A stretch of 64,000 nt of DNA, from contig CAZVRA010000001.1 in the NCBI GenBank assembly GCA_964630055.1, forward strand, positions 174,483-238,482, written 5' to 3'. The position numbers and the translations under genes were made by a program. The notes beneath the pieces were generated by a model. The model made no database searches. It was not told the origin of the DNA and saw only the letters and a program-made list of their open reading frames with translations. Within the stretch, counting starts at the first letter, position 1, and the number at the start of each line of letters is the position of its first letter. The DNA comes from an uncultured Candidatus Saccharibacteria bacterium (GTDB taxonomy: Bacteria > Patescibacteriota > Saccharimonadia > Saccharimonadales > CAZVRA01). This document shows, piece by piece, positions 28,359 to 54,671 of this stretch.

Positions 28359-28433
28359 GGCCTCATCGTCTAACGGTTAGGACACCAGGTTTTCATCCTG
28401 GCAATCGGGGTTCGATTCCCCGTGAGGTCACCA
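28359..28433 (+). tRNA. tRNA-Glu (anticodon TTC), CCA encoded
   Basis: Cloverleaf folded by hand. Acceptor stem 7 bp with one G-T pair, D-stem 4 bp, anticodon stem CCAGG/CCTGG, loop TTTTCAT, T-arm CGGGGTTCGATTCCCCG, discriminator A then CCA. Confidence 0.85.
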
Positions 28434-30126
28434 TAAGGTCTTTATGACCGGCCATCAAGTCTAGCAGCGAATTCACCCCTGTAAAAAGGGGTGTTTTCGT
28501 GTTTCCAGTTTTTAAATCTTCGTAAGTTGGCATTTTGTTGAAAAGTGCTCGGAATAACAGCGATTTTTTAACCTGTGACCCCTGTTTTAACAGTAGTTCA
28601 TCGAGGTTTTCCAGGAAATATTGGACTCTGGTTATCGCACGCTCAATTTTTTGGTCCTTTTCGTCTTCTGTACCAGCGACTTTTTTGGCCTCCAGCGCCA
28701 GTACTTGTTTTTCTATACGCTCCAGATCCTGCTCTAAATATGTCAGTGCTGTTCGGTTTGTTAGGACTTTGAGTTTGTTAATAACCATCTCTGCCTCGGT
28801 ACGTAATGCAGCTATTCGGTCATCTGTGTTCTGTATTTCTTCCAAGGCCTCTTCGCGGTGTTTCTCGTACAGTTTTCTAACCAGCGCCATAACGTTCTCT
28901 ACGTGCTCCTTGGGTACAGTGAACTGTTTTATAAACGCATCGACACTGTCCTCAAGCTCGTTTTTCGACACCCTAAAGTAGTGGCCGTGGTTACTGCAGT
29001 GGTAGGCTGGGTAATACTTACCGTTACGACCTTTTGATGCACTGCCCAGCAGGGGTCGCTCACACTCAGGACACAAAACAAAGCGTCTGAACGCGAATTC
29101 ATCCGACTTCTTGCCACGATTTATGACATTCTGTGGAGCTTTGGCCTTGGAGATGACATAATCTCCTTGCTCGTCCACTGCAATAATTTTTTTGCCACGA
29201 TTAGCCTTATTGAATAGAGATATGCTGACCAGGCTATCGAAGGCACTTTTTATAGGTTTGCCATCAGTCCACTTCTCACAAAGTATCCCAGCATATAAGG
29301 GGTTATTGAGCAGTTTATGCATAGCTTTAATGGTAAGGGGATCACCACCTATATGCCTGACTATTTTTGTCTTGTCGTGTTTGTCACGAATGTTCCGAGT
29401 GCGCGTCTTGAAGCCCAGGTTGTTTAGTTTGTCCACAATTTGCTGGTCAGTTAGGTAGTTCTCGGCACGCATTGTAAACATCTTTGTTATAAACTTCGCC
29501 TCATCTGGATGTGGTCTGAGCACCGTTCGTTTGCCGTGCTGCGTATCTACTTTTTCACTAGTAAAACCATAGGGCGATTGGCGCATCCAATAACCAAGTT
29601 GGGTGTAGCGTATTTCTGCACCTATGACTCGGCTCAATATGTCTCTGAGCTCATCCTTAGACCGCTCAGCCTCCAGTATCTCCGACTTCTTGGTGGGAGA
29701 ATACACGCTCCAGTTGTACTCAAAGCCCAAGTGGTCTAGGGTATTTACCTTCTGGTTACTTATGACTCCATAGATGTCTACCAGCGATACGCCGGCACGC
29801 TCCAATTGCAGTTTGAGCGGGTTATACGTATCCGAGCCGCCACGCGTGAACCTGTCGATTGATTTGATGATAAATAGGTTTATACCGTTCTTTGGGTTCT
29901 TGCAGTAATCTATAGCCTGCTGTATGGGTTGCTGTTCTTTGCTGGCCGACTCCAGGAACACGAAATACTGCTTAATGGTAATGCCGCGGCTTTCAGCAAA
30001 ACGTTCTATCTGCTCACGTTGGGCCTCGGGCGAGTCTCCATCGGTGCCTTGTTTGGTGGTTGAAACTCGGATTGCCGCTACCGCGTTTACGTTAGCCTTC
30101 TGCAACATGCCCAGCCTCCAGTTCAT
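28393..30126 (-). CDS. Large serine recombinase (integrase); the last 13 codons lie inside tRNA-Glu
   Basis: N-terminal resolvase catalytic motif AIRVSTTKQ...SPEAQ. About 577 aa with a Cys-rich zinc-ribbon segment (CPECERP...CSNHGH) and a C-terminal coiled coil. The C-terminal ...MVTSRGIEPRLPG* is the reverse translation of the tRNA T-arm and acceptor region. Confidence 0.8.
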   Translation of the reverse strand: MNWRLGMLQKANVNAVAAIRVSTTKQGTDGDSPEAQREQIERFAESRGITIKQYFVFLESASKEQQPIQQAIDYCKNPKNGINLFIIKSIDRFTRGGSDTYNPLKLQLERAGVSLVDIYGVISNQKVNTLDHLGFEYNWSVYSPTKKSEILEAERSKDELRDILSRVIGAEIRYTQLGYWMRQSPYGFTSEKVDTQHGKRTVLRPHPDEAKFITKMFTMRAENYLTDQQIVDKLNNLGFKTRTRNIRDKHDKTKIVRHIGGDPLTIKAMHKLLNNPLYAGILCEKWTDGKPIKSAFDSLVSISLFNKANRGKKIIAVDEQGDYVISKAKAPQNVINRGKKSDEFAFRRFVLCPECERPLLGSASKGRNGKYYPAYHCSNHGHYFRVSKNELEDSVDAFIKQFTVPKEHVENVMALVRKLYEKHREEALEEIQNTDDRIAALRTEAEMVINKLKVLTNRTALTYLEQDLERIEKQVLALEAKKVAGTEDEKDQKIERAITRVQYFLENLDELLLKQGSQVKKSLLFRALFNKMPTYEDLKTGNTKTPLFTGVNSLLDLMAGHKDLMVTSRGIEPRLPG

Positions 30127-30358
30127 TTTCTATGGTTTCAATTAGGAGTTCGGCCAGTATATTAAGTCGCTCTTCTAGCGAAAGCTCTGGTGGCGGCTGG
30201 TTGATTGACCCTTTTTTACGACCCATTTTATCCTCAATATACCTACCTATATAAGTATAGTTTACTACCTTGTGTAGTATTGTTTCAAGGATAATATGTT
30301 GTAGTTTTTTATAATTACGAAATTATAAGTTTTTATATATTTTCTATCTGTTAATGCT

Positions 30359-31099
30359 TTGTTTTACTGTTCTCTCTTTATATACTACGTAGAGAGTATG
30401 AGTGGAAGAAGACTAAATAAGAAACAAACTGACCTACTCGCTATTGTGTGTAAGTTTAGATATGTCACGACAGATAATGTAGCCAAACAAAAAAGTATAA
30501 CTAGTAATGCAGCTTACAGTGCCTTAGAGATTCTACATAGTAATGGTTATCTGGGTAAAATTCATAAAAAGAGCTATCGGTTACAGAACAAATCAGCTCG
30601 TTATTATTTGGATCCCAAGGCCATTAAATATATCAAACAGGCTATGCCAGATATTGACCCAGAAAGCCTACAAAACCGCGCAAGGGACAGGCAGAAGTCA
30701 GAAGACTTCATAGACCAGCAGGTGGCCATACACGCGGCCTACATCGCCCTGCAGGGCAAGTATGGGGCTAAGGCAGCTATTATGACCGGTGCCGAGATGC
30801 AGAGCATGGAGGGCATTATTAAGCCGCTGCCAAGCCTATACATAAAACCTGCGGGCAAGAAACATTTCTTTGTCGAGCTGACTGACGGACAGCACCTGTT
30901 TATTGTTAAAAAGCGCATTAGAAAATACATAGATAATCACGAAGCCGGTGAATGGGATTGGGAACACTACCCGGATGTCCATATTGTTCGCAGCTCCAAG
31001 GCCGATAGACACAAGTTAGAGGCCTATGTGGAAGAAAAAATGGACGATGCTTACCTGGATAATGATGATTTTTCTTTTAAGATGTTAGATGAGTTGTAG
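30359..31099 (+). CDS. Replication-relaxation-family-like winged-helix protein (hypothetical)
   Basis: KKQTDLLAIVCKFRYVTTDNV and AAYSALEILHSNGYLGKIHKKSYRLQNKSARYYL fit the pattern of the replication-relaxation family found on plasmids and ICEs. The similarity is weak. Confidence 0.35.
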   Translation: MFYCSLFIYYVESMSGRRLNKKQTDLLAIVCKFRYVTTDNVAKQKSITSNAAYSALEILHSNGYLGKIHKKSYRLQNKSARYYLDPKAIKYIKQAMPDIDPESLQNRARDRQKSEDFIDQQVAIHAAYIALQGKYGAKAAIMTGAEMQSMEGIIKPLPSLYIKPAGKKHFFVELTDGQHLFIVKKRIRKYIDNHEAGEWDWEHYPDVHIVRSSKADRHKLEAYVEEKMDDAYLDNDDFSFKMLDEL

Positions 31100-31130
31100 A
31101 GCAGTTTTTAGTCTTACTCAGGACTGACGC

Positions 31131-31346
31131 CTACTCGGTGTCCAGTATCCAGTCTTGGGTTAGGCCCTCATACGAAATGCTATCCGCGACTTCACCGTCC
31201 TGGTCAACCCAGACCTGAATGAAAAACGGCTGGGTGTACCAGCCGTGTTCTTTTGCGATTTTCGCCCACCATTTCCGGTGTTCCTCGATTTGTATTTCTG
31301 TCGGAACGCTTTCGGCAGTTGCTACCGCTGGTGCTGTTGGGTTCAT
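31131..31346 (-). CDS. Small hypothetical acidic protein (71 aa)
   Basis: ORF that starts 1 nt after the upstream ORF ends, so the two are co-directional. Confidence 0.25.
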   Translation of the reverse strand: MNPTAPAVATAESVPTEIQIEEHRKWWAKIAKEHGWYTQPFFIQVWVDQDGEVADSISYEGLTQDWILDTE

Positions 31347-31347
31347 G

Positions 31348-31641
31348 TCAGACCTCCTGATCTGCTACGTGACTAGTTACTATTGCGATCCAGTCAATAC
31401 GGTCAAAAGCCGTACCAAGTAAGTCCTGCCAGATGCTGGCGGTGTCTATCTCGTCCTCAAGCTGCCACCTGAGTTCCTGCTCGATGTATTGAGCTGTCTC
31501 CCAGATGGTGTTGTTCTCTTTGATGGCACGACAGAGCAGATCGTACATACCCTCATCGTTGTTAAGCCAGAGATTGCCTAACCACGTTTCACGGTTTGTC
31601 CAACCGTTGTACGTTTGAGTTTGTATTGTTGCTTCAGACAT
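31348..31641 (-). CDS. Small hypothetical protein (97 aa)
   Basis: ORF abutting the previous one on the same strand. Confidence 0.25.
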   Translation of the reverse strand: MSEATIQTQTYNGWTNRETWLGNLWLNNDEGMYDLLCRAIKENNTIWETAQYIEQELRWQLEDEIDTASIWQDLLGTAFDRIDWIAIVTSHVADQEV

Positions 31642-31867: not shown

Positions 31868-32365
31868 ATGGGCGTTAGATATTCGTTTGACGACTTCTCT
31901 ACAAAAGGACACGGCGTTATTGAGTACGCCGATCCGCATTATTACGAAGACGGCCAGAAACCTAAGCGCCGCACTAAATCCAAATCAAAGTTCGCTACTC
32001 GCTGGCCCGGTCCAGCACCGATGAAGTTTAAGGCTTCAAAGAGTAAGGCCGAATCAAAATTATTAGCACAGGCAGAGGCGCAGAAAATCTTTAAGCGGCG
32101 TTATCCAGGCCAGAAGCCGAAAAAGGGTCAGATTAAAGAAATTATGCGCGAACTGCAAGCGAAACCTCAAAAGCAAAAGGTCAAAAAGACCAAAACAGGT
32201 AGCATAACCAGTGTCAAAGTGAAAAAGCCCAACCCTAACCAGAAGATTGATGAGCTGACACTAGCAGTCTTTAAGCGGCGTTACCCTGGACAACAACCCC
32301 AAGCTGGACAGATCCAAGAAATCAAACAAGAGGTTATTAACGCAAGAAACAAATTGGGCGTATAA
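31868..32365 (+). CDS. Lys-rich basic protein with an internal duplicated motif (probably nucleic-acid binding)
   Basis: Two copies of (I/V)FKRRYPGQ-P--GQI-EI. A high K/R/Q content. Confidence 0.35.
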   Translation: MGVRYSFDDFSTKGHGVIEYADPHYYEDGQKPKRRTKSKSKFATRWPGPAPMKFKASKSKAESKLLAQAEAQKIFKRRYPGQKPKKGQIKEIMRELQAKPQKQKVKKTKTGSITSVKVKKPNPNQKIDELTLAVFKRRYPGQQPQAGQIQEIKQEVINARNKLGV

Positions 32366-32486
32366 TTTGGCTTAAGAGGTTTGTGTCGGGAGTCGCCGTT
32401 TGCGAGAGGACGCAAGCCTCTTTAATGTTTATAATGTTTATGCATATCTTGTAACTTTATATACTTTGTGATAACATTATAAAGTT

Positions 32487-33407
32487 ATGACAGTAAAGCA
32501 GCGCCTTAATGCTATTCAGAAAGCCTCTGGTTGGTCACAAGAACAGCTAGCATCCAAGCTAGGGGTTAGCTTTGCTACGCTCAACGCCTGGATAAACGAA
32601 CGCTCAGAACCACGCACCAAAGCTGAGCAGAACATAGAGCGTTTATACCTGGATATTGTTGGCGTAGACGCAGTAGATGCCGAGGTGCTTAAGAAGTCTA
32701 AGCAAGCAGCCCTGAAACTAAAAGCCAGTGCCAAAACAATCGCCAAAAATAAAGAACAACTTGACGCACTGACTTTGCACCTGACGTACCACACCAATAC
32801 CATTGAGGGCAGTACCATGACCCTGTCGGACGTTGAAGAGGTACTGTTTGACCACAAGGTACTAAGTAACCGTACCGCCATAGAGCAAGCTGAGGCACGT
32901 AATCACCAAGCGACACTGTATTGGCTACTAGACGAACTAGCCAGCAAGGGCAAAGACTTCGTTATAGATGAGCAACTTATTTTAGGTATCCACCTGCGTC
33001 TTATGAACGGCATTATTGGTACTGCCGGACAATACCGCACGCACTCAGTACGGATCATGGGTGCGAACGTGCCGCTCGTAAACTGGCAAAAAGTACCAGA
33101 ACGAGTAAAAGAGCTGGTAGGACACATAGCTAATCAATCTGACGATACTATTGCTGACATAGCCAAGATTCATGCGGAGTTTGAACAGATTCACCCATTC
33201 GCCGACGGCAACGGCCGTACCGGGCGGCTTATTATGCTAGCACAAGCACTAAAAGCCGGCATACTACCACCACTGGTAGTCAAGGAGCGCAAATATGCTT
33301 ATTACAAATACCTGGAGCTGGCGCAGACCAAACGGGATTTTTCGCCACTGGAGCTATTCGTGGCTGAAAGCATTGAGTTCTCTGGCGAGCTATTCGCTGG
33401 CCCATAG
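32487..33407 (+). CDS. Fic/Doc-family protein with an N-terminal XRE-type HTH
   Basis: Fic motif HPFADGNGRTGR. N-terminal QEQLASKLGVSFATLNAWINERSEP is a helix-turn-helix. Confidence 0.75.
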   Translation: MTVKQRLNAIQKASGWSQEQLASKLGVSFATLNAWINERSEPRTKAEQNIERLYLDIVGVDAVDAEVLKKSKQAALKLKASAKTIAKNKEQLDALTLHLTYHTNTIEGSTMTLSDVEEVLFDHKVLSNRTAIEQAEARNHQATLYWLLDELASKGKDFVIDEQLILGIHLRLMNGIIGTAGQYRTHSVRIMGANVPLVNWQKVPERVKELVGHIANQSDDTIADIAKIHAEFEQIHPFADGNGRTGRLIMLAQALKAGILPPLVVKERKYAYYKYLELAQTKRDFSPLELFVAESIEFSGELFAGP

Positions 33408-33424
33408 GCTGAGTACGCGCATTG

Positions 33425-33722: not shown

Positions 33723-36311
33723 ATGTCCATAGTAATAGACGATATCCGCACTGATTTTCGTGAGTTTTGGAATCTTCCTATTGTTAAGGGCGGCGTGAAT
33801 TATAAGAAATCCTACTTTGATGAACTAAACGCATCCTTGCTATTTGAGAGGCTGGCTGAATCATCCACGTCAGATGATCTGGCCATTGTGCTCCCTCAAG
33901 ACTCGACAACACTACCACTGGTAATAATAGAGAGCCTGCTATCGCTATTCAAATACGATTTAATGAGTTCTAGTGGGTCACTAGACAACCTAGAGCCTGA
34001 AGAATCGGTAGGCCTAATGCGTGATCGTACGATGACACCTGGCATTTACAAAGGCACCGAGTATAGGGATGGCAAGAAGTTCTATCGAGTTTGGGATATT
34101 TCTGAAAAGGGTCATGTGCTAATACCTGAGGAGAGAAAATGGAGGATACAGCCGTATAACACAGAAATCTCAGCTAAGCGCAAGCTGACGACTGAAGTAC
34201 GCGGAAAAGTTTTAGAGGAACTGGCAGGAGTGGAAGCTGGGGGTCTGTTTGCATATCAGAATACAAAAGGGCTACTAGTCACATCTAACAAAGGTAAGCT
34301 CAAGGACGACATACAGGAAATATCCTTGGGTGGTGACCCTATAGAATCTATATTCCCAATAGCAGACTATTCAGATGTAGAAAACTATAAACCTTTGCTT
34401 ACAGACAGCCTACGAAGAGACTTTGTGCTTGGCTTGGTCTCTTATGCCGACACAGCGGTTGATATAGCCCTACGAGATCCAAAATATAGGCTCTTAATTA
34501 TAGAAGGTGCAGCTAAGGTACGCTCTGCGTATGGCAGTATAGAGCGTCTCAATGCAGATAATAATCCACGTAAAATAATCTGCGTCCTAAATAGTTCAGA
34601 TGAAGAAGAAATAAGTACACTTTCCCGTATGGGCTTCCGTTGCTGGGTGTGGAAGAGAGATGACTTCAAGCGCATGCACATTGACGATACGCTCGATAGT
34701 GAATTGTCCGGTAACAATTTTGAACTACACGACTCAATCATTAGCGCATTGTCTGAATCCAATTCCGTTACTCACACAATTGATGGTAGCGAAGAACTTG
34801 ATGGGCTATTCACCGTGCTATTCCAGAGCATACGTAAAATTGCTAAAGCCACGCCCGTGAATGAAGACGCCGGTATTATCATCCGAAGGCTATACGCATA
34901 CTTAAAATTCTTTATGCAGCTACCTGTGACCGTAAAGGAGTATGAGCAGTATTTGTTTCTTAACCAGCGCACATTACTTACTGATCAAATTGATGAACTC
35001 GCAGCCAGGATGCAAGCTGGGTACGGTGTTATATTCCCGCGCGATATACAGCAGGACTGCACAAAAATAATAGAAACAATAAAAAGCATCTACTCTTACC
35101 TTGAGCAGAGTAATCCGAGGAAAAATCAATTAATGCAGCTCCTGGGTGACAAGACGCATAAAAAGACAACGATAGTCTGCTCACGTTCCGAGTTCGCCGA
35201 AATACTACGGGAACAAAAGTCCATATCCCAAAACACTACTATTATCAGTGCTAACGAGATAAAGTGGGTTCCAAGCGACAGGGTCATAGTTTGCGGCCAC
35301 TTTACTAAACTCTTTGTGTCAAAGACTTTTCTAGCACCTTTCAAAAGCTTGGAGTTCCAGCTGTATAAAGATGAAAAACGTGCGTATGAGTATGTGCTTG
35401 CAAGGCACCCAGCCTCCCCACGCAGTAGGATAGACACAAGCTTACGCAAACAATACATACCGGAACAGGATCAAGTAGTCGATCCTAGTGCTGTCACCAA
35501 AGATAACTCCACGGGCGATGATCTCGAGAATCTTATTAAGTCTGTGAATGAGCGTTTTGGCGAGACCACAGATTTTAGCGGCACATTCTCTAGCGGTTAC
35601 AGACCCTCCGCTGATTATGTGGATGCCAGGAGAATCATATTTGATAACGAATCGTTCACATATTTGAACTCCGGTCACCAAGTCAACAGAATAGACCGTA
35701 TTAAGAACGAGATCGAACGTTGTTCTATTGGTGAGCTTGAGACTGGTGATGAGCTAATTTTTACACATAACTCAAGAGATCTTTTCGATGACTTAATGAA
35801 TAGTATGAAGGAAGCTGACACGTATAAGCTACTCGAGCAAGAGTCTTCAGTATGGTGGAGGGCACTCAGGGACTACGCAAGGGACAACAATATGGATGAG
35901 GATAAGCTTGCAGAAAAACTTGAAGATCTTGGCTGTAAACGACATCCCTTTACCATTAAGCAATGGACTAACGGCAAGATGATAAGTCCGACCCATATTT
36001 CCGAAACGCTTACTGCCATAGCATCACTAACTGGGGACAAAAGACTTGAGGGCGACCATGCCTCTATTATTGCCGCCTGTAAGACGCTTTTCGCTCTTCA
36101 TATCCAGACCGGACGACTGCTCATTAGAAGAATAGTTAGCTCAGCCGTGACCACAGAAGAGGACGAGGAAATCGATGAAGAAACCAAAGGTAGAATAGAT
36201 GCTTATGCGAAGCAGGCAATACTTGTGAATGTCGCGTATATATCTGATAACACTGCATCTGTACCTGACAATGCTATTGGACAGCTTTTTACGGCACAGG
36301 GGCAGCTATGA
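33723..36311 (+). CDS. Large protein of unknown function (862 aa), first gene of the defence-like operon (possible DrmE analogue)
   Basis: Long ORF. Its stop overlaps the next gene's ATG (ATGA). No motif recognised. Confidence 0.45.
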   Translation: MSIVIDDIRTDFREFWNLPIVKGGVNYKKSYFDELNASLLFERLAESSTSDDLAIVLPQDSTTLPLVIIESLLSLFKYDLMSSSGSLDNLEPEESVGLMRDRTMTPGIYKGTEYRDGKKFYRVWDISEKGHVLIPEERKWRIQPYNTEISAKRKLTTEVRGKVLEELAGVEAGGLFAYQNTKGLLVTSNKGKLKDDIQEISLGGDPIESIFPIADYSDVENYKPLLTDSLRRDFVLGLVSYADTAVDIALRDPKYRLLIIEGAAKVRSAYGSIERLNADNNPRKIICVLNSSDEEEISTLSRMGFRCWVWKRDDFKRMHIDDTLDSELSGNNFELHDSIISALSESNSVTHTIDGSEELDGLFTVLFQSIRKIAKATPVNEDAGIIIRRLYAYLKFFMQLPVTVKEYEQYLFLNQRTLLTDQIDELAARMQAGYGVIFPRDIQQDCTKIIETIKSIYSYLEQSNPRKNQLMQLLGDKTHKKTTIVCSRSEFAEILREQKSISQNTTIISANEIKWVPSDRVIVCGHFTKLFVSKTFLAPFKSLEFQLYKDEKRAYEYVLARHPASPRSRIDTSLRKQYIPEQDQVVDPSAVTKDNSTGDDLENLIKSVNERFGETTDFSGTFSSGYRPSADYVDARRIIFDNESFTYLNSGHQVNRIDRIKNEIERCSIGELETGDELIFTHNSRDLFDDLMNSMKEADTYKLLEQESSVWWRALRDYARDNNMDEDKLAEKLEDLGCKRHPFTIKQWTNGKMISPTHISETLTAIASLTGDKRLEGDHASIIAACKTLFALHIQTGRLLIRRIVSSAVTTEEDEEIDEETKGRIDAYAKQAILVNVAYISDNTASVPDNAIGQLFTAQGQL

Positions 36312-38029
36312 GACTTATACCGAATTACATAGATGAAAAGAACTCTAGTAACGCCGAGAAAAAACTGTTTAAGCTGTTTTCTAAGACAGACAGGCTGAAT
36401 GACTGGGTATGTCTACATTCATTGGGTGTTAGCCAACATATAAACAAACGAGAAGGTGAAATAGACTTTTTATTGATCGGCCCAGCGGGTATCTTTGCTT
36501 TAGAGGTGAAGGGCGGACGAGTTGAGAGACGCAATGGCATCTGGTACTTCACCGACAGATTTAGCAGGGTTAGCAAAAAGCACGAATCTCCATTCACTCA
36601 AGCAAAAACTGCGCTTTACTCAATCAGATCTGATGTTACAGAGCGATTCGGTAAAACATTATACAGTTCGGTATTCGGATATGGGGCTATGTTTCCAGAT
36701 ATTCAATTTGGAGTAGAGTCCCCCGAGTGGCATGCTGATATGGTTTTTGACCATAATGATATGCAGTCAGATATTGCTGACTATGTAGAACGATTGAGTG
36801 AGTATTGGACGTTACAGCAGCGGTCTAGGAGACAGTTAACTCGCCGAGAGATCAGTGAGGTCGTTAATTATCTACGCGGTGACTTTGAGATCATTAGACC
36901 ACTCTCTGAAACTATAGAGGAAACCGAGGACTCTATTATACGACTCACTGAAGAACAATATACTTGCTTGGACGCAATGGAACTCAACCCAAGAACCATT
37001 TTCTTTGGCGCTGCAGGAACCGGTAAGACACTGTTGGCAGTAGAGAAGGCTAGGCGAAATAAAATCAAAGGAATCCCTACACTATTCCTATGTTTCAATC
37101 GCTTACTAGCGGATTATGTTAATGATTTACTCTCGCGTGAACCTGGTAGCGGAGTGCAAGTATATTCACTGCATAGTTTTCTAAATAAGTTGATTAAACA
37201 GGCCGATCTTGAAGGTGGCTTAAACACTGGCGTATCTAGTCAGAGTGAGTTATATGAACGTATCTATCCCCATCTAGCATTACAAATAAAGGAGTTGCCG
37301 AAGTTTGAAGAACTCATCATAGACGAGGCTCAGGACGTGTTGTCGGAGCAGTACCTAAAGGTTCTGGATCGTCTAGTCGACGGTGGTGTTGATCATGGTA
37401 AGTGGCTTATGTGTATGGATCCAGAAAACCAAGACATATATCAAAAAGCTGACAGTAAGATGCTGGGCGATGTAAAAAGCCTCGCTTCATCATATGTGCT
37501 GACGATAAACTGTAGAAACACCAAACCTATCGCTATTCAGACTGAACTCATCACCGGTATATCAGCCGGTGCTACAACTAGGATCGAAGGAGTACCCGTT
37601 AATTACATATGGTACGAAGACCAGCAAGACCAAGCCAGACAACTTAGCGACAAGATAAATGTCATGCTCAAAGAAGGTGTAGAGCCTGACGATATTACTA
37701 TACTGTCGCACAAAAGTGGAACCCCATCCTTAGCAGGTAGTGGCAGGTTGCGTATCGATGCACCTACTCATCTCATAGATACAAGGAGCGGTTCCATAAA
37801 GATTAACGGGCATATAGGATACTGCACCATATCATCATTCAAAGGATTGGAAAGCAAGGTCATTGTCATTACTGATACGGCTGAGCTAGAAGGAGATGCG
37901 TACAGGTTGCTAAACTATGTGGGCTTCACGAGGGCACGCGCCCTACTTGTCGTGTGCATGAACAAAGAGCTGAAGAAGCAGTACAAAGCAAAAATTGCTA
38001 AACTTACTATAGCCGACGGTAAACTATGA
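36308..38029 (+). CDS. NERD-domain plus UvrD/PcrA-like SF1 helicase
   Basis: N-terminal ...HSLGVSQHINKREGEIDFLLIGPAGIFALEVKGG matches the NERD pattern. Walker A FFGAAGTGKT, Walker B LIIDEAQD. C-terminal ...LNYVGFTRARALLVV is UvrD_C-like. Both junctions with its neighbours are ATGA overlaps. Confidence 0.6.
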   Translation: MRLIPNYIDEKNSSNAEKKLFKLFSKTDRLNDWVCLHSLGVSQHINKREGEIDFLLIGPAGIFALEVKGGRVERRNGIWYFTDRFSRVSKKHESPFTQAKTALYSIRSDVTERFGKTLYSSVFGYGAMFPDIQFGVESPEWHADMVFDHNDMQSDIADYVERLSEYWTLQQRSRRQLTRREISEVVNYLRGDFEIIRPLSETIEETEDSIIRLTEEQYTCLDAMELNPRTIFFGAAGTGKTLLAVEKARRNKIKGIPTLFLCFNRLLADYVNDLLSREPGSGVQVYSLHSFLNKLIKQADLEGGLNTGVSSQSELYERIYPHLALQIKELPKFEELIIDEAQDVLSEQYLKVLDRLVDGGVDHGKWLMCMDPENQDIYQKADSKMLGDVKSLASSYVLTINCRNTKPIAIQTELITGISAGATTRIEGVPVNYIWYEDQQDQARQLSDKINVMLKEGVEPDDITILSHKSGTPSLAGSGRLRIDAPTHLIDTRSGSIKINGHIGYCTISSFKGLESKVIVITDTAELEGDAYRLLNYVGFTRARALLVVCMNKELKKQYKAKIAKLTIADGKL

Positions 38030-43211: not shown

Positions 43212-44197
43212 GAGAATGATTCTTCCTCGCTAATTGTAGGAACTCGCGGAATCTGCGTCATCAGTGCTTTAGCCATTTCGTTCACTAGCGGCACACATAC
43301 AGAATTGCCGAACTGCCTATAAGCAGGCGTTTTAGTATCTGGGAGGATGAAGGTTTCAGGGAAGCCCATCAACCTGGCGCACTCCCTAGGTGTAAGCATG
43401 CGAGGATTTTTACCCTTCTGCTCTATGAGGTTCTCCCTACCATCCTTACCGTAACGTGACGTGAGTGTACTTGCAATACCGTTGATATCAACAATATGAT
43501 GTCTAAATCCATTGCCTTTTAGTCTATTACGTTCAGAGCGGGCTTTATGCGACTCCCAAAGTCGATCACTAATCGTGTATTGTTCGTCAGGCTTATCTTC
43601 AAGGATATCTTTTAGCCTATGCTTTCTCTGCTTTACCATAGGGAATTTGAAAACAATATCATCACGCATAGCTACCATGAATATTCTTTTTCTTCTGTGG
43701 GGTACCATTAGGGATGCATCAAACACCTGTGAGTTAAACGAATATCCAAGTTTTGTTAGCTCGTCTTTTACTATGGCGAGACTTCTACCCCCGTCATGCC
43801 GTTCGAAGTTGGCTACATTTTCAAGAAATATAACTTTTGGTTTGTGGTACTTAGCTATCCTAACTATCTCGTAGAATAGGTTGCCCTGTTTTTCATCCTG
43901 GAAACCATGTTTTCTTCCAAGTCCTGAGCGTGCCGACACCCCAGCCCTTGAGAATGGCTGACAAGGAAACCCAGCACATAGTATGTCGTGCGAAGGTATC
44001 TCGCTGGCTTTTACCTGCCTTATGTCGCGTGTATCTATTTCATTGCCGTGGTTGCGGCGGTAAGTAGCGACAGCAGAACTATCCACTTCGTTTGTGTACA
44101 CACAGTTAAAACCAGCCTGTTCAAATCCCAGTCTAATACCGCCTATGCCGGCGAATAGATCTATAAAGGTCAGCTTTTGGTCGTCGTCCTGTGTCAT
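43163..44197 (-). CDS. DNA cytosine-5 methyltransferase
   Basis: Motif I FIDLFAGIGG, motif IV GFPCQPFS, motif VI FLENV, motif VIII PHRRKRIF, motif X QFGNSV. Converges on the DUF1998 gene and overlaps it by 49 nt. Confidence 0.85.
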   Translation of the reverse strand: MTQDDDQKLTFIDLFAGIGGIRLGFEQAGFNCVYTNEVDSSAVATYRRNHGNEIDTRDIRQVKASEIPSHDILCAGFPCQPFSRAGVSARSGLGRKHGFQDEKQGNLFYEIVRIAKYHKPKVIFLENVANFERHDGGRSLAIVKDELTKLGYSFNSQVFDASLMVPHRRKRIFMVAMRDDIVFKFPMVKQRKHRLKDILEDKPDEQYTISDRLWESHKARSERNRLKGNGFRHHIVDINGIASTLTSRYGKDGRENLIEQKGKNPRMLTPRECARLMGFPETFILPDTKTPAYRQFGNSVCVPLVNEMAKALMTQIPRVPTISEEESFSHFAPRVIPENSPVLG

Positions 44198-44297
44198 ATG
44201 TGTTTAGGTCTTAAACCATTCTAGCATTAGTAGCGGCTCTCATGGAACATAAGCTCTACCAATTTTTAATAGCCGTAAATAGTTATAAAATTGGGCT

Positions 44298-45068
44298 ATG
44301 AAGCAAGGGCAACGGGCTTGGACGCGTGAAGAACTGATTCTGGTAGTAAACCTATATCTAAAACTACCCTTTGGGAGACTACATAAGCTTAATCCGGAAG
44401 TTGTCGAACTTGCTAGCCTCCTCAACAGAACAACCAATTCAATTGCGCTCAAGTTAGTTAATTTTGCCAGCCTTGACCCCAGTATCAAGGCTCGTGGTTT
44501 CAGCGGTATGAAAAACGCAAGCAAGCTTGATGTCCAGGTATGGCATGAATTCTTCGATAACTGGGAATCCCTTCCTTTCGAAAGCGAAGAACTTCTCGCT
44601 AAACATAGACACACTACTGTTGAGGAGCTGAATCACATCTCGGAGGAAGAATTGCCGAAAGAAGGAATTGATAGAGAACGAATTGTTAAGACTAGGGTCA
44701 ACCAATCACTCTTCAGAAGTTCAATTCTAGCCGCCTACAACAATACATGCTGTATCACCGGTATTAACAAGCCTGAGCTGTTAGTGGCTGGGCATATACG
44801 ACCGTGGGGCATTGATGAAAAAAACAGATTAAATCCGCGAAACGGTTTGGCAATTAACGCACTTCACGACAGGGCATTTGAGTCTGGGCTTCTTACGGTA
44901 ACTCCAGACTATAGAGTACATATATCCTCCGCACTCCTTAAACAGAAAGATGAATTTATTAAAGAATACTTTGGCAGGTACGATAATCAACCAATTATTC
45001 TTCCATCAAGATTCTTACCAGACATCAAGTTCCTTGAATACCATAACAAAGAGAGGTTTATTGCCTAA
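44298..45068 (+). CDS. HNH endonuclease-family protein (HNH_2-like putative restriction endonuclease)
   Basis: CCITGINKPELLVAGHIRPW...NGLAINALHDRAFESGLLTV is the HNH core. Divergent from the C5-MTase. Confidence 0.6.
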   Translation: MKQGQRAWTREELILVVNLYLKLPFGRLHKLNPEVVELASLLNRTTNSIALKLVNFASLDPSIKARGFSGMKNASKLDVQVWHEFFDNWESLPFESEELLAKHRHTTVEELNHISEEELPKEGIDRERIVKTRVNQSLFRSSILAAYNNTCCITGINKPELLVAGHIRPWGIDEKNRLNPRNGLAINALHDRAFESGLLTVTPDYRVHISSALLKQKDEFIKEYFGRYDNQPIILPSRFLPDIKFLEYHNKERFIA

Positions 45069-45148: not shown

Positions 45149-47524
45149 TCAGAGAACTAACGTCTCACCACTCGTTGGTTCGCTAATTTTGGTGCCAGAG
45201 ATACGGCAGTAGAAGTTGTAGGCAGGCAGGTTGCTAATCTCGCCCTTTTCTATGTACGGCTCAAACAATGGTAGCAGCAACTCCTCGTCCTTAGGACTAC
45301 CAGTCCTAAAGGTAACAATTGTCCCTACATTAGCTAGGATGATATCAATCAACTTTTGATTATCCTGTTGCTGGGTGCTTTGTTCTGCCATGGTGACGTA
45401 AACCTTATATTTTCTGGCCTCGCTGAGCATCTGAGTAAACGAAACCGTCGCAAAGTTCTGGAACTCATCTACGTACAGGTGGAACGGCTTGCGCGTAGTC
45501 TGTTTTTGTTCTGAACGCTTCAATGCCGCTAGCTGGAGCTTGGCTAGTATGGTCGTTCCAAATAATGACGATGTGTCCTCTCCCAGGCGTCCTTTAGAAA
45601 AGTTGCACACCAGTATCTTGCCGTCCAACACCTCGCTGAAGTCTATGTCTGATTTTTCTTTCTCTAACATAGTGCGTGCACTGGCTGAGAACAGGAATCG
45701 ACCTATTTTGGCCGTGATACCAGCCGCCATCTTTACCTTCTGCATACTACCAGCCTTGCCCAGCTCGTTCTTCCAAAATGCCTTGAGGTCTTCATTCTTG
45801 AGATCTTTGATGACCTTCTTGGCATACTTGCCGTCGTTTAGTAACCGGAAAATAGTAAACAGTGTAGGATTATCAGTAGTGAATGCCGTATGTATGGTGT
45901 TGCGCAGTATGTACTCTATCCTGTGACCGCCGGTGTCATCATCTGAAAACACTTTGCGCATAACAGATATAACCGACTCCGTAACCCTATCTTTCTCGCG
46001 CAGTAGGTCGTTGCCGCTCAAGCCCTCTGGTAACTCCAGTAGGTTCACACCAATGGGGTGGTCTAGGTCGTCGGGGTTGAGGTAGATTAAATCTTTTTCG
46101 CGCTCTTTTGGAACATACTCGAGCAATTCTTCTGCCAGATCACCGTGTGGATCAATAATAGCCACGCCTTTGCCAGCACGTATATCCTGTACAATCTGGT
46201 ATTTGAGCATAGTGGTCTTGCCGCTGCCGGTGCCACCGACTATGTACATGTGCCGTTCTCGCTCTGCCGCAGTTAGCCCAATGGGTGTTTCTTCTTCGTG
46301 ATGTTTGTTTACCCCAATGATTACATCAAAGTTTTGATTGCTCCTCAGGCTCATAGGAGCCGCTAGCGTCTTGTTGTGCGAGCGCACCATACCCTCTACC
46401 TTCATAACACCGTGCGGAAAATGGTATAGACTGCCCAACTCCGCGGCACTAAGTATCAGGGAGTTTTTGTTAATGATTGCTGACAGGCGACTATTGAACA
46501 GTTTGTTTTTGTAGTTTTGCCAACCATTACCACCAAACGGGTTGAACAAGATAATTGACTGAAAACCAGGCCTGTCTAGGACCTTAAGTGATCCGACAAA
46601 GTCATCGACTATTTCCTGGCTATCTCGGGCATTTATGCTCAAGCGCATGTCTACCTTAGCCAGTGGCTGGTCAAGCTTCTGGATAATCTCTTCGTATAGC
46701 TTCTCTTCTGCCTGAGTCAAAGGTGCTGGCGGTTCGTTATTGCTAAAATAGCCAATCGCTCCAATAACCAGCGCTGATATAAGTCCTAGAGCCCAGTTCT
46801 TTGCCAAAATACCAATAATTGCACCAGGCAACCACACCCATGCATACGCCAGCAGATAATACTTAATGCCGCCTCCTACGTGGGTGCGACCATCTTTGAG
46901 AAGCCTGTTATACAGGCGACCAACACCCCTTGAGCCAAACGGCCTCACTACAAGCTGGAGCGACACATTGTCCTTACCGCCAAGCCGAGTGAAGGTGCTG
47001 GCGATAAAGCCTATGGGGTCGGTTTTGGCAGCGTCAGTGTAAGTCTTGAGCGGATATGCAAAGTGCTGCCTAAGCTTGAATGTGTAGACTCGTGAGTTGG
47101 TGTTTATCTGCGGAACCTCTGTGGTAGATATCCTAACCTCGGGCATATATGAACTGATTTGTTTCTTGATGCCCTTAGCCGAGTGCTTTTCGGCAATTAT
47201 CAGATACCTGACACCTTTAGACTTGTTGCTGGTTATCTCTAGCGATAGACGCTCTTTTGCGTATATGCGCTGTAATACGCGCATAAAGTTCTGGGTATGC
47301 TCGGGATCGACCTGATTCTTATGAGGCGGCGTTATTTCTATGCAGACTAGCTCACGCCCTTTGAATAATGCCAGAATGTCTTGGAGCAAAGAGTAGGTTG
47401 GTATCAGTACGTATTTGTACAAAATATACGCCAGAATAGATATCACTACCGCATTCACGATAACCTCGGTGGTCGTATCACCGAATATTCTAGTGAATAG
47501 TGAGGTAGAAAATATGCCGTACAT
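45149..47524 (-). CDS. Membrane-anchored FtsK/HerA/TraD-superfamily P-loop ATPase (type IV coupling protein-like)
   Basis: N-terminal TM helices. Walker A YIVGGTGSGKTT, then IIDPHGD. Walker B LYVDEFQNF. 791 aa. Confidence 0.5.
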   Translation of the reverse strand: MYGIFSTSLFTRIFGDTTTEVIVNAVVISILAYILYKYVLIPTYSLLQDILALFKGRELVCIEITPPHKNQVDPEHTQNFMRVLQRIYAKERLSLEITSNKSKGVRYLIIAEKHSAKGIKKQISSYMPEVRISTTEVPQINTNSRVYTFKLRQHFAYPLKTYTDAAKTDPIGFIASTFTRLGGKDNVSLQLVVRPFGSRGVGRLYNRLLKDGRTHVGGGIKYYLLAYAWVWLPGAIIGILAKNWALGLISALVIGAIGYFSNNEPPAPLTQAEEKLYEEIIQKLDQPLAKVDMRLSINARDSQEIVDDFVGSLKVLDRPGFQSIILFNPFGGNGWQNYKNKLFNSRLSAIINKNSLILSAAELGSLYHFPHGVMKVEGMVRSHNKTLAAPMSLRSNQNFDVIIGVNKHHEEETPIGLTAAERERHMYIVGGTGSGKTTMLKYQIVQDIRAGKGVAIIDPHGDLAEELLEYVPKEREKDLIYLNPDDLDHPIGVNLLELPEGLSGNDLLREKDRVTESVISVMRKVFSDDDTGGHRIEYILRNTIHTAFTTDNPTLFTIFRLLNDGKYAKKVIKDLKNEDLKAFWKNELGKAGSMQKVKMAAGITAKIGRFLFSASARTMLEKEKSDIDFSEVLDGKILVCNFSKGRLGEDTSSLFGTTILAKLQLAALKRSEQKQTTRKPFHLYVDEFQNFATVSFTQMLSEARKYKVYVTMAEQSTQQQDNQKLIDIILANVGTIVTFRTGSPKDEELLLPLFEPYIEKGEISNLPAYNFYCRISGTKISEPTSGETLVL

Positions 47525-47631
47525 TTTTGTCCTCTAGTCTCATTTTATGCCACCCCTGTAACAATTACGAGCATGAGCAATATGAGGCCCGGAAATCTCC
47601 TATACTTTTCTTGAGGTAACAAGGAGTTTTT

Positions 47632-49080
47632 ATGGCAAAAATTAACACCAATGCAGTGATACTTGCGAGAGTATCCAGTAAAGCCCAGGAAGACGGTTAT
47701 TCGTTGGACGCCCAGACCAAACTGATACGTGCTTACTGTGCGAGAAACAAACTAGACATAATCAAAGAGTTTCGTATATCCGAAACAGCCTCTAAAAATG
47801 AGCAGAGGAACATATTCAGAGAGATGCTGGCCGAGATTAACCGCAGGGGCATAAACCACCTTGTAGTGGAGAAAACTGACCGCCTAACACGTAACTTCAA
47901 AGACGCTGTCGTGGTAGATGACTGGCTGGAACAGGACGAGAATCGGCGGCTACATATGGTCAAGGAGAGCCTGATCATCCATAAACACGCCAAGTCTGAC
48001 ACGAAGCTAATGTGGAACATATTCTTAGCCATCGCCAAGAAATACACTGATAATCTCAGAGAAGAAGTCATGAAAGGCTGGGATGAAAAGCTGGCGCAAG
48101 GATGGATGCCAGCAGTGCCTCCGCCTGGCTATAAAACTATCACAGAGAATGGTAGGAAGATTCACGTTATAGATGAAGACACAGCGTTTATGGTCGAGAG
48201 GGCCTTTAAGTATTTTCTGTTGCCCGAGGGTTGCGTACGAACTGTTGCAGAAGAATTAAGGAGGTGCGGCTTAACAACTGGCAAGGGTAATCCGCACTCC
48301 AAAAGTGCCGTACACAAAATACTTACCAATAAGTTTTATGTGGGGACAATACAATTCAACGGCAATGAGTATCCGGGTGCTCACGAGCCACTGATAGATA
48401 AAGCTCTTTTCAGCAGGGTGCAGAAAAAGATGAATAGAAGAAACGGCATTAAATCTAGTGACTTAAAGTTCTTGTTCAAGGGGTTTATAAGATGTTCAAC
48501 ATGCGGTGCTTTAGTGACTTGGCAGAGGCAAAAAGGACGCCACTACGGCTCCTGCCAGCGCAGAAGTGAGGCATGCAAAAAAGGCTTCATGAGAGAAGAT
48601 CGGGTCGAAGAAATCATCATAGATAGGCTGGGCAAAATTGACGACAAAGACGGTGTACTGTTTGAATCTGTAAAGACAACGTTACTCGAGTACAGGAATC
48701 CATTCTCGGGTACTGATGTGACCAAAATGGAGAGGCTACTCACTGCTCAACTAAGGCGGCTCAAGATGATGGATACAGCCTTGTATGACGATAAGCTTAC
48801 GGGGCTAATTGACCAATCTGTCTACGTGCAAAAAGCTGAGCGCATCAAGCTAAGGGTAGATAGAGTCGAGGCAAGGCTCAGCGAGCTAGAGCTACATGTA
48901 AAAAATATTGAGGACATAACAACGCGCAAAAAATCCAGGTATGCGATGAGAAAACTATATATGCAGTCTGGTTTTGCCGAAAAGCGGCTGATTATCGATA
49001 ATCTGCTCCGTCTAACCTCAAAAGACAATGAAGTGCATATTGACTTGCTACCTATGACAAAGGCCGCCTCTGGAGTATAA
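47632..49080 (+). CDS. Large serine recombinase
   Basis: N-terminal AVILARVSSKAQEDGYSLDAQ catalytic Ser motif. Recombinase domain, Cys-rich zinc ribbon (CSTCGAL...CQRRSEAC) and a C-terminal coiled coil. 482 aa. Confidence 0.8.
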   Translation: MAKINTNAVILARVSSKAQEDGYSLDAQTKLIRAYCARNKLDIIKEFRISETASKNEQRNIFREMLAEINRRGINHLVVEKTDRLTRNFKDAVVVDDWLEQDENRRLHMVKESLIIHKHAKSDTKLMWNIFLAIAKKYTDNLREEVMKGWDEKLAQGWMPAVPPPGYKTITENGRKIHVIDEDTAFMVERAFKYFLLPEGCVRTVAEELRRCGLTTGKGNPHSKSAVHKILTNKFYVGTIQFNGNEYPGAHEPLIDKALFSRVQKKMNRRNGIKSSDLKFLFKGFIRCSTCGALVTWQRQKGRHYGSCQRRSEACKKGFMREDRVEEIIIDRLGKIDDKDGVLFESVKTTLLEYRNPFSGTDVTKMERLLTAQLRRLKMMDTALYDDKLTGLIDQSVYVQKAERIKLRVDRVEARLSELELHVKNIEDITTRKKSRYAMRKLYMQSGFAEKRLIIDNLLRLTSKDNEVHIDLLPMTKAASGV

Positions 49081-49089
49081 TATTAGACA

Positions 49090-49305
49090 ATGATTGATAA
49101 GGAAATTAAAGCTTCGCTGAAAACGACACTCCGCAAGGCGCGTAGAATTGTTGACATGAGCCAGCGTGAAGTTGCCGAAAAGATTGGCACAAGCGAAGTT
49201 TATTACGCCAAGATAGAACGTGGCGAGGCTGTGCCATCACTAAGAATGCTTGGTAAGATCGTGCGTGCCATTGGCGTATCGTCAAAAGATGTACTGCCGT
49301 TTTAG
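49090..49305 (+). CDS. XRE-family HTH transcriptional regulator (71 aa)
   Basis: MSQREVAEKIGTSEVYYAKIERGEAVPS is a helix-turn-helix. Confidence 0.55.
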   Translation: MIDKEIKASLKTTLRKARRIVDMSQREVAEKIGTSEVYYAKIERGEAVPSLRMLGKIVRAIGVSSKDVLPF

Positions 49306-49306
49306 G

Positions 49307-49504
49307 CTATTCTTCAGTTTCTTTGTGTAGATTTTCCAGCATATTTTCCAGCTGGTCGGGGTCGGTTTGAGCTAGCTCACGGACTTCCATTTTGGTCTTG
49401 AGTAGCAGGTTGATTGCATCCTCACGGGTTGCATCAGGCTGTACGCGCTGGAGGCTCTCCAGCACGGTTTCTATATCTTTGTCGTTCAACTCATATCCAC
49501 TCAT
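49307..49504 (-). CDS. Small acidic hypothetical protein (65 aa)
   Basis: ORF converging on the XRE gene. Confidence 0.3.
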   Translation of the reverse strand: MSGYELNDKDIETVLESLQRVQPDATREDAINLLLKTKMEVRELAQTDPDQLENMLENLHKETEE

Positions 49505-49646
49505 GTATGCTCCACGATATACTTACGGTTCAAAATTTCCCCTGTTAGTATAGCAGTCCTCGATGCGTAAACCAGCATCCTCAAGCAACCTGTCCATTTC
49601 CTCTATAGAAGACGCAAGATGTTTCCAGTATAATCCCCTAGAGCTC

Positions 49647-49689
49647 ACCAAATTAAGATACCCACCATAGGTGGGTATCTTAATTTGGT
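49647..49689. repeat. Perfect 20-bp inverted repeat (accaaattaagatacccacc / ggtgggtatcttaatttggt) with a 3-nt spacer
   Basis: Read directly from the sequence. Three further hairpins follow (49691-49710, 49715-49728, 49781-49806). Confidence 0.75.
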
Positions 49690-49780
49690 AGGTTTCGCTC
49701 TGGCGAAACCAAAGCGAACTCCGGTTCGAAGAACAAGGCAGCGCGCAGGAGCTTGCTGCGAGCACTGCTGAAGTTCGCAA

Positions 49781-54666: not shown

Positions 54667-54671
54667 GGTAA

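Follow-up and report, generated by a model that had tools for sequence, protein, structure and literature searches.

In a 64,000-nucleotide stretch of contig CAZVRA010000001.1 from an uncultured Candidatus Saccharibacteria bacterium (the whole stretch is called the window below), we analysed a segment that adjoins the gene for tRNA-Glu(UUC) and carries, among other genes, a large serine recombinase (LSR), which we call Int, and a set of defence genes. We conclude that this segment, positions 28434-49650, is probably an integrative mobilisable element (IME) of Candidatus Saccharibacteria and a member of a large, lineage-specific family: it has inserted by means of an attachment site (attP) lying inside its own integrase gene, would be transferred by borrowing a type IV secretion system (T4SS), and would alter the behaviour of its integrase by exchanging the tail of that protein upon integration. 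As an island it is of an ordinary kind, an integrative element with defence cargo; what is distinctive is the combination of a serine integrase, a target at the 3' terminus of a tRNA gene, an attP inside int and a very large Patescibacteria-specific family.

Ends of the element and its tRNA target

The insertion site comprises the following features.

28359-28433, + strand: tRNA-Glu(UUC) gene, the sole tRNA of the window according to ARAGORN (Rfam tRNA, 62.4 bits); host gene, B arm of attB, left intact by the insertion
28428-28433, + strand: attL core TCACCA (acceptor end, discriminator and CCA), reading ...GTGAGG TCACCA TAAGGTC..., the element starting directly after the core
49645-49650, + strand: attR core TCACCA, the right end of the element, reading ...TAGAGC TCACCA AATTAAG..., host DNA starting directly after the core
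49647-49689, + strand: host terminator-like hairpin with perfect 20-bp arms (inverted repeat), outside the element; B' arm, 3' of tRNA-Glu before the insertion

TCACCA (6 bp) is the sole sequence common to attL and attR, and comparison with related elements places the element at 28434-49650 (21,217 bp), with the crossover within TCACCA, the last six bases of tRNA-Glu. Two contigs of one other sample, ERR14149686, bear the same element ends at 92-93% identity (loci L175 and L169). Firstly, L175 is 93.4% identical to window 31840-28372; it agrees at 100 of the last 100 nt before the core and at 6/6 core positions, while its tRNA-Glu matches that of the window at 50 of 56 positions, the six differences including a compensatory change in the T stem. 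Secondly, L169 is 92% identical to window 45162-49650, with 279 of 294 positions matching on the element side, 6/6 in the core and 14 of 60 on the host side. The tRNA varies between hosts while the element does not, which argues that the tRNA is host DNA, that the crossover fell in TCACCA and that the element spans 28434-49650.

Joining the tRNA to the hairpin at 49647-49689 gives a reconstructed attB with the architecture seen in unoccupied tRNA-Glu sites of Saccharibacteria contigs (L002, L004 and L007), and the hairpin-rich stretch 49650-49830 consists of host terminators. The predicted attB junction reads ..GTGAGGTCACCAAATTAAGATACCC.. (diagnostic k-mer CGTGAGGTCACCAAATTAAGATACCCACC) and the predicted attP junction ..CCCCTAGAGCTCACCATAAGGTCTTTATG.. 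(diagnostic k-mer CCCCTAGAGCTCACCATAAGGTCTTTATGACC). Next to attR, the arm on the element side mimics that of the tRNA (GTTCC-N8-CCCC-N-GAG-N-TCACCA), as expected if one protein binds both sites.

A classical tRNA-gene scheme would place the ends differently: the element would carry the tRNA 3' half, strands would cross over in the T loop or the anticodon loop, and the far end would hold the host half that was displaced. Such a scheme would suit the stop codon of int in the anticodon loop, a 17/20 match to the anticodon arm at 43885-43904, and the likeness of the attR-side element arm to the tRNA acceptor and T stem in 14 of its last 17 bases. A search for a displaced tRNA fragment, however, yielded no copy of the tRNA 3' 27-mer at up to three mismatches, and the match at 43885 was rejected as a displaced tRNA: the methylase gene around it is intact, and a match of this quality is expected by chance in a repeat search of that size. 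The identity of L175 and L169 to the window, moreover, ends at TCACCA, with the tRNA differing between hosts and the element not. The scheme is already contradicted by this and we find it barely credible. An Rfam scan of the window gave no match besides tRNA-Glu.

The assignment of the host draws on the gene adjoining the tRNA, which encodes the phosphoenolpyruvate synthase PpsA and is 74-77% identical to genes of Candidatus Saccharibacteria metagenome-assembled genomes (MAGs) and far less similar to anything else. Homologues of both recombinases of the element, Int (LSR1) and the second one (LSR2), come from Saccharibacteria or Saccharimonadia wherever they are named. PpsA-based scans of genome and metagenome contigs disclosed no close relative of the source genome (best identity, 74-77%); no record of the exact PpsA protein was found, and synteny with the nearest MAGs is lost beyond adk-ppsA. 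With no close relative on record, an empty site in a sister strain was unusable and the ends were set from the related elements L169 and L175 instead.

An earlier note on this DNA, made from its letters, had drawn an island of about 21 kb at 28359-49700; the island is real, but its true span is 28434-49650 and its right end is 49650, not 49700. Comparison with related genomes, which the note had suggested for locating attL and attR, did fix the ends, although through L175 and L169 and not through a close relative with an empty site, none of which was found. The segment had further been described as AT-richer than both flanks, and this holds: the guanine-plus-cytosine (GC) content is 44.6% in 28434-49650 versus 48.8% on the left (13001-28433) and 47.0% on the right (49651-60600), and the sliding composition check shifts at both ends, the tetranucleotide profile switching at ~28.5 kb and ~49.5 kb. 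Likewise borne out by the sequence (28393-30126) is the observation that the integrase open reading frame (ORF) reads across the 3' half of the tRNA, with its last 13 codons antisense to it and its stop in the anticodon loop. This overlap is the key to the mechanism, since attP lies inside the integrase ORF.

The integrase and its exchanged tail

28393-30126, - strand: Int (LSR1), integrated form, 577 aa, a large serine recombinase; likely start at 30108; last 13 codons antisense to the tRNA
49523-49651, - strand: native C-terminal tail of Int, now orphaned at the distal end of the element; 42 codons (LVSSRGLYWKHLASSIEEMDRLLEDAGLRIEDCYTNRGNFEP) that share the reading frame of the core
30092-30226, - strand: candidate directionality factor or regulator, a 44-aa ORF (ORF call) overlapping the start of int

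Int matches the Pfam families Resolvase (PF00239, 3.3e-11) and Recombinase (PF07508, 2.9e-7) and, weakly, Zn_ribbon_recom (PF13408, 20.1 bits against a cut-off of 25.3). It matches a PHROG integrase at 3e-41, and one homologue, P0001, is 100% identical. The catalytic residues R13, S15, D84, R85 and R88 and the zinc-ribbon residues C344, C347, H368 and C369 are invariant across 51 homologues. The last 13 codons, MVTSRGIEPRLPG, are the antisense of 28396-28434 and give the protein the C-terminus ...HKDLMVTSRGIEPRLPG; its TGA stop is complementary to 28393-28395, comprising anticodon bases 35-36 and base 37 (A37).

The overlap of Int with tRNA-Glu is evidently a family trait. We examined the best 120 of 1473 Int matches, the 120th of which is still 58% identical and nearly all of which are 569-572 aa long. 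The antisense of a tRNA-Glu 3' half, (M/L/V)V-xxxx-(I/V/F/L)E(P/L)x(L/F)(P/S/L)G, followed by a stop in the anticodon loop, terminates 97 of these 120 proteins; eight read on through other tRNAs without that stop, and seven possess a longer, native tail, (M/L)V-x6-W(N/K)xL..L..L..LG. Three others are partial and five are oddities, including a frameshifted lineage (P0050/P0118). The tRNA-derived peptides co-vary with the base pairs of the T stem (R..R/L, P..G, W..Q), implying that the sequence of this tail is dictated by the tRNA and not by protein function.

The counterpart of the native tail lies at the other end of the element. There, an ORF of 97 aa (49523-49816) ends in ...L followed by VSSRGLYWKHLASSIEEMDRLLEDAGLRIEDCYTNRGNFEP; its real coding part is the last 42 codons only, which can be aligned with the tails of the seven native-tail integrases as well as with the ORFs found at attR in L161 and L167, both of them integrated elements. 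The N-terminal parts of these attR ORFs are mutually unrelated and represent host DNA. The reading frame across TGGTGA is identical at attL, in Int, and at attR, in the orphan tail. In addition, the int genes of L167 (integrated) and L163 (a tandem junction) are near-identical and diverge right after TTGGTGACC. The alignment of the orphan tail with native tails and the common frame at both junctions place attP inside the int ORF. By this evidence attP lies within int ~40 codons before the natural stop, and integration swaps 42 codons for 13 codons of tRNA antisense.

We consulted an AlphaFold2 (AF2) model of the native-tail homologue P0083, with a mean predicted local distance difference test (pLDDT) of 76.8. 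It depicts a normal large serine recombinase with two long coiled-coil helices at 398-446 and 450-479, and the att-encoded residues 549-570 fall in a segment with pLDDT <50. A predicted flexible linker at this position explains how a DNA site is tolerated inside the gene. An ORF of 44-55 aa at the start of int occurs also in L161, L162, L163, L167, L175 and L176; the 44-aa ORF of the window has no family match. A scan of IMG/VR with the integrase alignment returned one distant match only (36%).

Whether the exchange of tails matters to the protein is a separate question. The overlap of attP and int could be a neutral product of genome compaction, both tails being dispensable and devoid of regulatory meaning, and we give this view, which rivals only the regulatory part of our interpretation, an even chance. 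It would account for a tRNA-derived peptide that merely tracks tRNA covariation, for the P0050/P0118 lineage, which lost its native tail through a frameshift before the core, and for the P0083 model, in which the native tail is a low-confidence helix (562-580, pLDDT ~50-59) with no predicted docking. With the frameshift and the low-confidence helix, a functional role of the tail swap is no more than putative. Against neutrality stands the retention of a recognisable, amphipathic tail helix by integrases whose overall identity is no more than 55-60%, as well as its persistence as an open, in-frame sequence at attR of the window, L161 and L167.

A family of related elements

We compared the backbone of the element with four loci (L161, L162, L163 and L167) by tblastn of the island proteins and with further loci through their gene tables. 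Int, a Replic_Relax protein, an XRE regulator and a 65-aa ORF are kept in 4/4 loci; the Replic_Relax gene adjoins int at every related locus, and the small ORF at the start of int belongs with these four to the conserved backbone. A coupling-protein-like ATPase is found in two of them (L162 and L167, 41-42% identity), and a DUF7249 protein in one, L162, as well as in L175. The XRE regulator and the 65-aa ORF occur also in L169, and the former in L168 and L173 too. No tblastn match in the four loci was obtained for the Fic, DISARM, methylase, HNH and LSR2 proteins nor, at E <= 1e-3, for a 165-aa ORF of the element, and the window and ERR14149686 elements have different genes between their conserved ends. 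Since the ends and the backbone are conserved while the inner genes differ, the Fic gene, the DISARM-like operon and the methylase/HNH pair are seen as exchangeable cargo.

Individual members show several arrangements. L167 is a complete 10.9-kb element, with both junctions visible, within a 699-kb Saccharibacteria contig. At L163, an int almost identical to that of L167 is fused to the tail of a second, different element with its own Replic_Relax and Int genes, an arrangement that we read as a tandem array at one tRNA. L162 is probably tandem too, having the same junction layout and a second integrase (P0096) on a contig of equal size. At L161 the element is inserted at tRNA-Glu(CUC). In L171, a serine recombinase ORF of 544 aa (7955-9589, - strand) runs antisense through the entire tRNA-Leu(GAG) gene (7983-8066, + strand), so that the design of an int laid over a tRNA is not restricted to tRNA-Glu; its neighbours are genes for an LSR2-type recombinase, a DUF8128 ATPase, Replic_Relax, KwaA and type IIG restriction-modification (R-M) proteins.

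Beyond a native-tail Int junction, L176 (3658-11537) encodes a phospholipase D-type (PLD) protein, a 74-aa ORF, a coupling protein, CHAP, VirB4-like, TraC-like, PrgI/VirB3 and TrbL/VirB6 (with a pilin domain) proteins and a TrbC/VirB2 pilin. Judged by this gene content, it is a member of the same family resembling an integrative and conjugative element (ICE), with a full type IV secretion gene set. Its integrase (607 aa, native tail) is present in 13 Logan contigs; the five that were retrieved share one break point, 1156 nt upstream of int.

Just past the intact tRNA-Glu(CUC) of L161, at 11790-11925, we observed a degenerate sequence resembling the 5' portion of tRNA-Glu (with acceptor 5' strand, D arm and anticodon stem), which lacks a T arm and contains three hairpin-forming insertions of ~20-33 nt; an older event at that site may have left it behind. 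The N-terminal half of the 97-aa attR ORF of L161 was also considered as a remnant of an older integrase and was dropped, because empty sites show the host tRNA terminator there.

Backbone genes

30359-31099, + strand: Replic_Relax protein (PF13814; MOB_C relaxase class; PD-(D/E)XK fold with an N-terminal winged helix); probable start at 30398
31131-31641, - strand: two small backbone ORFs, one of 71 aa and one of 97 aa belonging to DUF7249 (PF23907, 1.5e-12)
45149-47524, - strand: membrane-anchored coupling-protein-like ATPase (Pfam DUF8128, DUF87, TrwB_AAD_bind and TraG-D_C)
47632-49080, + strand: LSR2, the second large serine recombinase (Pfam), 570 bp inside the right end
49090-49305, + strand: XRE regulator, 71 aa, with PHROG transcriptional regulator matches
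within 49090-49504, - strand: conserved 65-aa ORF (ORF call), forming a distal module with the XRE gene

PF13814 has been equated with MobC, that is, with the MOB_C relaxase class in CONJscan terms (PMC5357655), and the family has a PD-(D/E)XK fold (PMC3424549). The ATPase exceeds the cut-offs of TrwB_AAD_bind (34.2 bits, cut-off 20.5) and TraG-D_C (23.6 bits, cut-off 22); it has transmembrane segments at 17-45 and 223-260 and the Walker A motif GGTGSGKT. Against PDB sequences it matches TrwB (E=0.003); the PDB sequence search also gave the N-terminal domain of the TP901-1 integrase (E=0.007), and nothing was returned with the Replic_Relax protein as query.

These proteins lend themselves to a different interpretation, in which the element resembles a plasmid or an actinomycete integrative and conjugative element (AICE), Replic_Relax being a replication initiator and the ATPase an FtsK/TraB- or HerA-type translocase of double-stranded DNA that moves the circle alone. 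The ATPase does also match DUF87/HerA and, in PADLOC, HerA/mad8, while PF13814 is annotated for plasmid replication as well as relaxation and occurs in Actinobacteria, the hosts of Saccharibacteria; AICEs likewise target tRNA genes (PMC2440964). Yet among named proteins and families the ATPase matches conjugative coupling proteins best, namely TrwB, TraG-D_C and, in NCBIfam, TraD and VirD4-like CD1115 (the NCBIfam matches, CedD included, all being far below their curated cut-offs), and in L176 the same distal module directly precedes genes of the VirB4, VirB6, VirB3 and VirB2 types. We therefore consider an AICE-like element unlikely and retain the mobilisable one.

The second recombinase raises the question of which enzyme moves the island. 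LSR2, alone or with LSR1, might define the ends: it is near the right end, in NCBIfam it is most similar to CcrB, a protein acting in pairs, an LSR2-type gene adjoins the tRNA-Leu-overlapping recombinase of L171, and contigs of matching length in the hit tables suggest that LSR1-type and LSR2-type genes lie together elsewhere too. The att core is embedded in LSR1, however, and not in LSR2, which lies 570 bp inside the end, and elements without LSR2 (L161 and L167) are integrated at the same core. LSR2 is hence better understood as an optional internal module than as a boundary, and that it defines the ends and moves the island is highly improbable. It may serve as a second integrase, a multimer resolvase or a helper. 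Its family counts 1393 matches, in Saccharibacteria, and the gene order ATPase (-), LSR2 (+), XRE (+) recurs in L168, L169 and L173.

Proposed movement of the element

The element has the traits of an IME: its own integrase with defined attL and attR, a putative relaxase, and no complete mating-pair formation set; a Pfam scan of 28434-49650 revealed no mating-pore genes and a coupling-protein-like ATPase only. In the scheme that we favour, Int, which inserted the element at the 3'-terminal TCACCA and kept the tRNA intact, would exchange strands by a 2-bp staggered cut within this core. Excision would rebuild the native int gene. The excised circle would be nicked by the Replic_Relax protein and handed by the element's own coupling protein to a T4SS supplied in trans, which could be a chromosomal Saccharibacteria system or that of a related conjugative element. 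The tail swap would make the integrated-state Int differ from the free-state Int in activity, direction or stability.

Besides the observations on the tail given above, several points weigh against this interpretation. No excised circle of the element was found, and the native-tail integrases observed represent tandem junctions (L163 and probably L162) and not demonstrated free circles; contigs with the 607-aa native-tail Int show no terminal repeats in the stretches examined, which stop short of the distal end of the 26-kb contig. The crossover is placed to the 6-bp core and not to one dinucleotide, the junctions being otherwise without shared identity, and no empty tRNA-Glu site was found in a close relative, PpsA relatives being at most 77% identical. 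As regards transfer, the Replic_Relax match to PF13814 is modest (31.8 bits, cut-off 25.3), and an alignment of six sequences brought out no clear invariant PD-(D/E)XK catalytic residues. The sub-threshold NCBIfam scores of the ATPase belong here too, as does its lack from L161 and from the second element of L163. No origin of transfer (oriT) was identified, no search aimed at one having been made.

The missing circle, the lack of mating-pore genes and an integrated int without its native tail would also be expected of an immobile remnant, fixed in place and retained as a defence locus only. Against this, no backbone ORF is disrupted, and the displaced tail still reads open and in frame. In ERR14149686, moreover, the ends recur at 92-93% identity beside different host DNA and different cargo, which points to recent movement of the same lineage, and we think a fixed remnant distinctly unlikely.

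The earlier note had called the island mobilisable or decayed. The former fits the relaxase-family protein and the ATPase, whereas decay finds no support in an intact backbone, an in-frame tail and 92-93% identical copies elsewhere. Its gene list (integrase, Replic_Relax, HTH-Fic, defence operon, methylase/HNH pair, ATPase, LSR2 and XRE) is correct by Pfam and PADLOC, and so is its statement that T4SS machinery other than the coupling-protein-like ATPase is absent, the Pfam scan of the island having found no mating-pore genes. The description of an island bounded by two serine recombinases applies to LSR1, which is tied to the att sites, but not to LSR2, which is followed by the XRE gene, the 65-aa ORF and the Int tail.

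Cargo genes

31868-32365, + strand: 165-aa lysine-rich repeat protein with an internal 180-bp duplication, ..FKRRYPGQ.P..GQI.EI.. (repeat 75% identical)
within 31868-33407, + strand: helix-turn-helix (HTH)-Fic protein of SoFic / PDC-S04 type (Pfam Fic, 6.8e-20; PADLOC PDC-S04 / SoFic)
33723-43211, + strand: DISARM-like operon (defence island system associated with restriction-modification) encoding DrmE, a NERD/UvrD-like helicase, DrmA and DrmB (PADLOC, NCBIfam)
36308-38029, + strand: the NERD and UvrD-like helicase gene, between drmE and drmA with overlapping stop and start codons (PADLOC 'RTasNERD-Hel', 4.6e-55)
43163-45068, - and + strands: C5 cytosine methylase (DrmMII-like, - strand; PF00145, 3.7e-85) and HNH endonuclease (+ strand; HNH_2)

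Read from the sequence, the defence genes ride as cargo on the integrated element. PADLOC matches were obtained for DrmA (3e-233), DrmB (6e-74) and DrmE, the last also in NCBIfam (DrmE_fam, 3e-95); the methylase matches DrmMII at 9e-114 and the nuclease HNH at 8e-93. The cargo shares DrmA, DrmB, DrmE and a C5 methylase (DrmMII) with DISARM class 2. Its layout is unusual for that class in having a NERD/UvrD-like helicase inserted between drmE and drmA and in being without the PLD-type DrmC usual there, none of which was found in the island defence operon with Pfam, PADLOC or NCBIfam. Moreover, the methylase, with an HNH nuclease as its partner, may be part of a distinct type II system. Inside the 165-aa ORF, L175 has a short DNA match of 79% identity. 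No Pfam or PHROG match to prophage or satellite genes (capsid, tail, terminase, packaging) was seen in the island, bar a weak P-loop match of the ATPase.

Other members carry other cargo. L162 has at 4116-6047 the signature of a diversity-generating retroelement (an RVT_1 reverse transcriptase, bAvd and an Lcl_C-type target protein), and L163 has at 8183-10930 genes of copper or heavy-metal resistance (a P-type ATPase, DUF305 and a CsoR-like repressor), so the cargo of the family is not confined to defence.

Flanking regions of the window

Outside the element we noted two further regions. Window 1-13000 is a second compositionally foreign stretch, with a GC content of 42% overall and of 34-41% at 9-13 kb and a tetranucleotide profile nearer to the island than to the core; no integrase was seen in it. 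Its genes are related to sugar modification and nucleotides (a DegT aminotransferase, a GFO/IDH/MocA oxidoreductase, a NUDIX-AdoHcyase-like fusion, nucleotidyltransferases and a histidine phosphatase), and it is probably a variable surface-glycan locus. At 59700-64000 (+ strand) an ORF of at least 1428 aa runs off the end of the window. Its product combines a membrane segment at the N-terminus with tandem repeats that are 60-100% identical and have a period of 531 bp (177 aa), and is probably a repetitive surface protein.

Discussion

No description of Saccharibacteria elements with a serine integrase and a tRNA target was found in the literature searched, although large island catalogues (TIGER/Islander) may list them undescribed. 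Serine-recombinase IMEs of Firmicutes (Tn4451/TnpX and streptococcal elements; PMC5704250, PMC5357655) share with the window element a single LSR, very short end repeats, accessory cargo, an own relaxase (a putative one in the window element), often an own coupling protein, and a lack of mating-pore genes. They insert inside protein-coding genes, disrupting them, or have low specificity (PMC5704250), whereas the window element targets the extreme 3' end of a tRNA gene, which is kept intact, has its attP inside the integrase ORF and resides in a Patescibacterium. Tyrosine-integrase islands at tRNA genes (Islander, PMC4383910) have in common with it an intact tRNA gene, a tRNA-proximal integrase, variable cargo and tandem arrays, but they combine a tyrosine integrase with a displaced tRNA fragment, in place of a serine integrase, a 6-bp core and no tRNA fragment.

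A site within the integrase coding sequence and a tRNA-gene target are also features of phage Mx8 (IntP/IntX) and of the 'suicidal' integrases of the archaeal Sulfolobus spindle-shaped viruses (SSV), in which integration alters or splits the integrase gene, respectively (PMC4383910, PMC7253208). Those enzymes are tyrosine recombinases and Int is a serine recombinase, hence the resemblance is functional and not one of membership. Unlike theirs, the exchange in Int concerns a short C-terminal helix only, leaves the catalytic and DNA-binding domains whole and adds a peptide that is tRNA antisense. The actinomycete AICEs pSAM2 and SLP1 (PMC2440964) are similarly small tRNA-gene elements with an integrase, a replication/relaxation protein and one membrane translocase-like ATPase; they differ in using TraB (FtsK-like) and mostly tyrosine integrases, the window ATPase being nearer to T4SS coupling proteins, with relatives that have VirB-type genes.

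Patescibacteria are reported to have a monoderm-type T4SS, essential in Southlakia, together with 5,713 VirD4-like genes, most of which lie far from virB4; of the relaxases recognised in them, only 109 in all, 58 are MOB_C (PMC12102498, PMC12857230). A wider reading would combine these data with ours: the LSR elements at tRNA-Glu would be the main conjugative or mobilisable elements of Saccharibacteria, their MOB_C-like proteins the 'missing' relaxases and their ATPases many of the orphan Patescibacteria coupling proteins; the essential T4SS would also move DNA; and attP inside int would be a built-in state switch between a full-length Int in the free element and a tRNA-tailed Int in the integrated one. 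We put this forward as a tentative proposal that we would at present rather doubt than believe.

The elements extend the picture of serine integrases, for which insertion within protein-coding genes is described, in that about a thousand or more detectable members here use the end of a tRNA, including its encoded CCA. For an attP within an ORF and the exchange of a C-terminal helix we found parallels only in tyrosine recombinases (Mx8 and SSV), and the exchange amounts to a natural experiment on the role of the extreme C-terminus of serine integrases. The element exemplifies how defence systems (DISARM-like, Fic and R-M) are shuttled between very small genomes, and an integrase with a short, universally present attB in tRNA-Glu could serve as a genetic tool for Saccharibacteria, which are hard to manipulate. 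Finally, the family is of immediate relevance to DNA transfer in Patescibacteria: it brings together a coupling protein and a MOB_C-class protein, joined in one relative by genes of VirB type, and thereby makes DNA conjugation through the T4SS directly testable.

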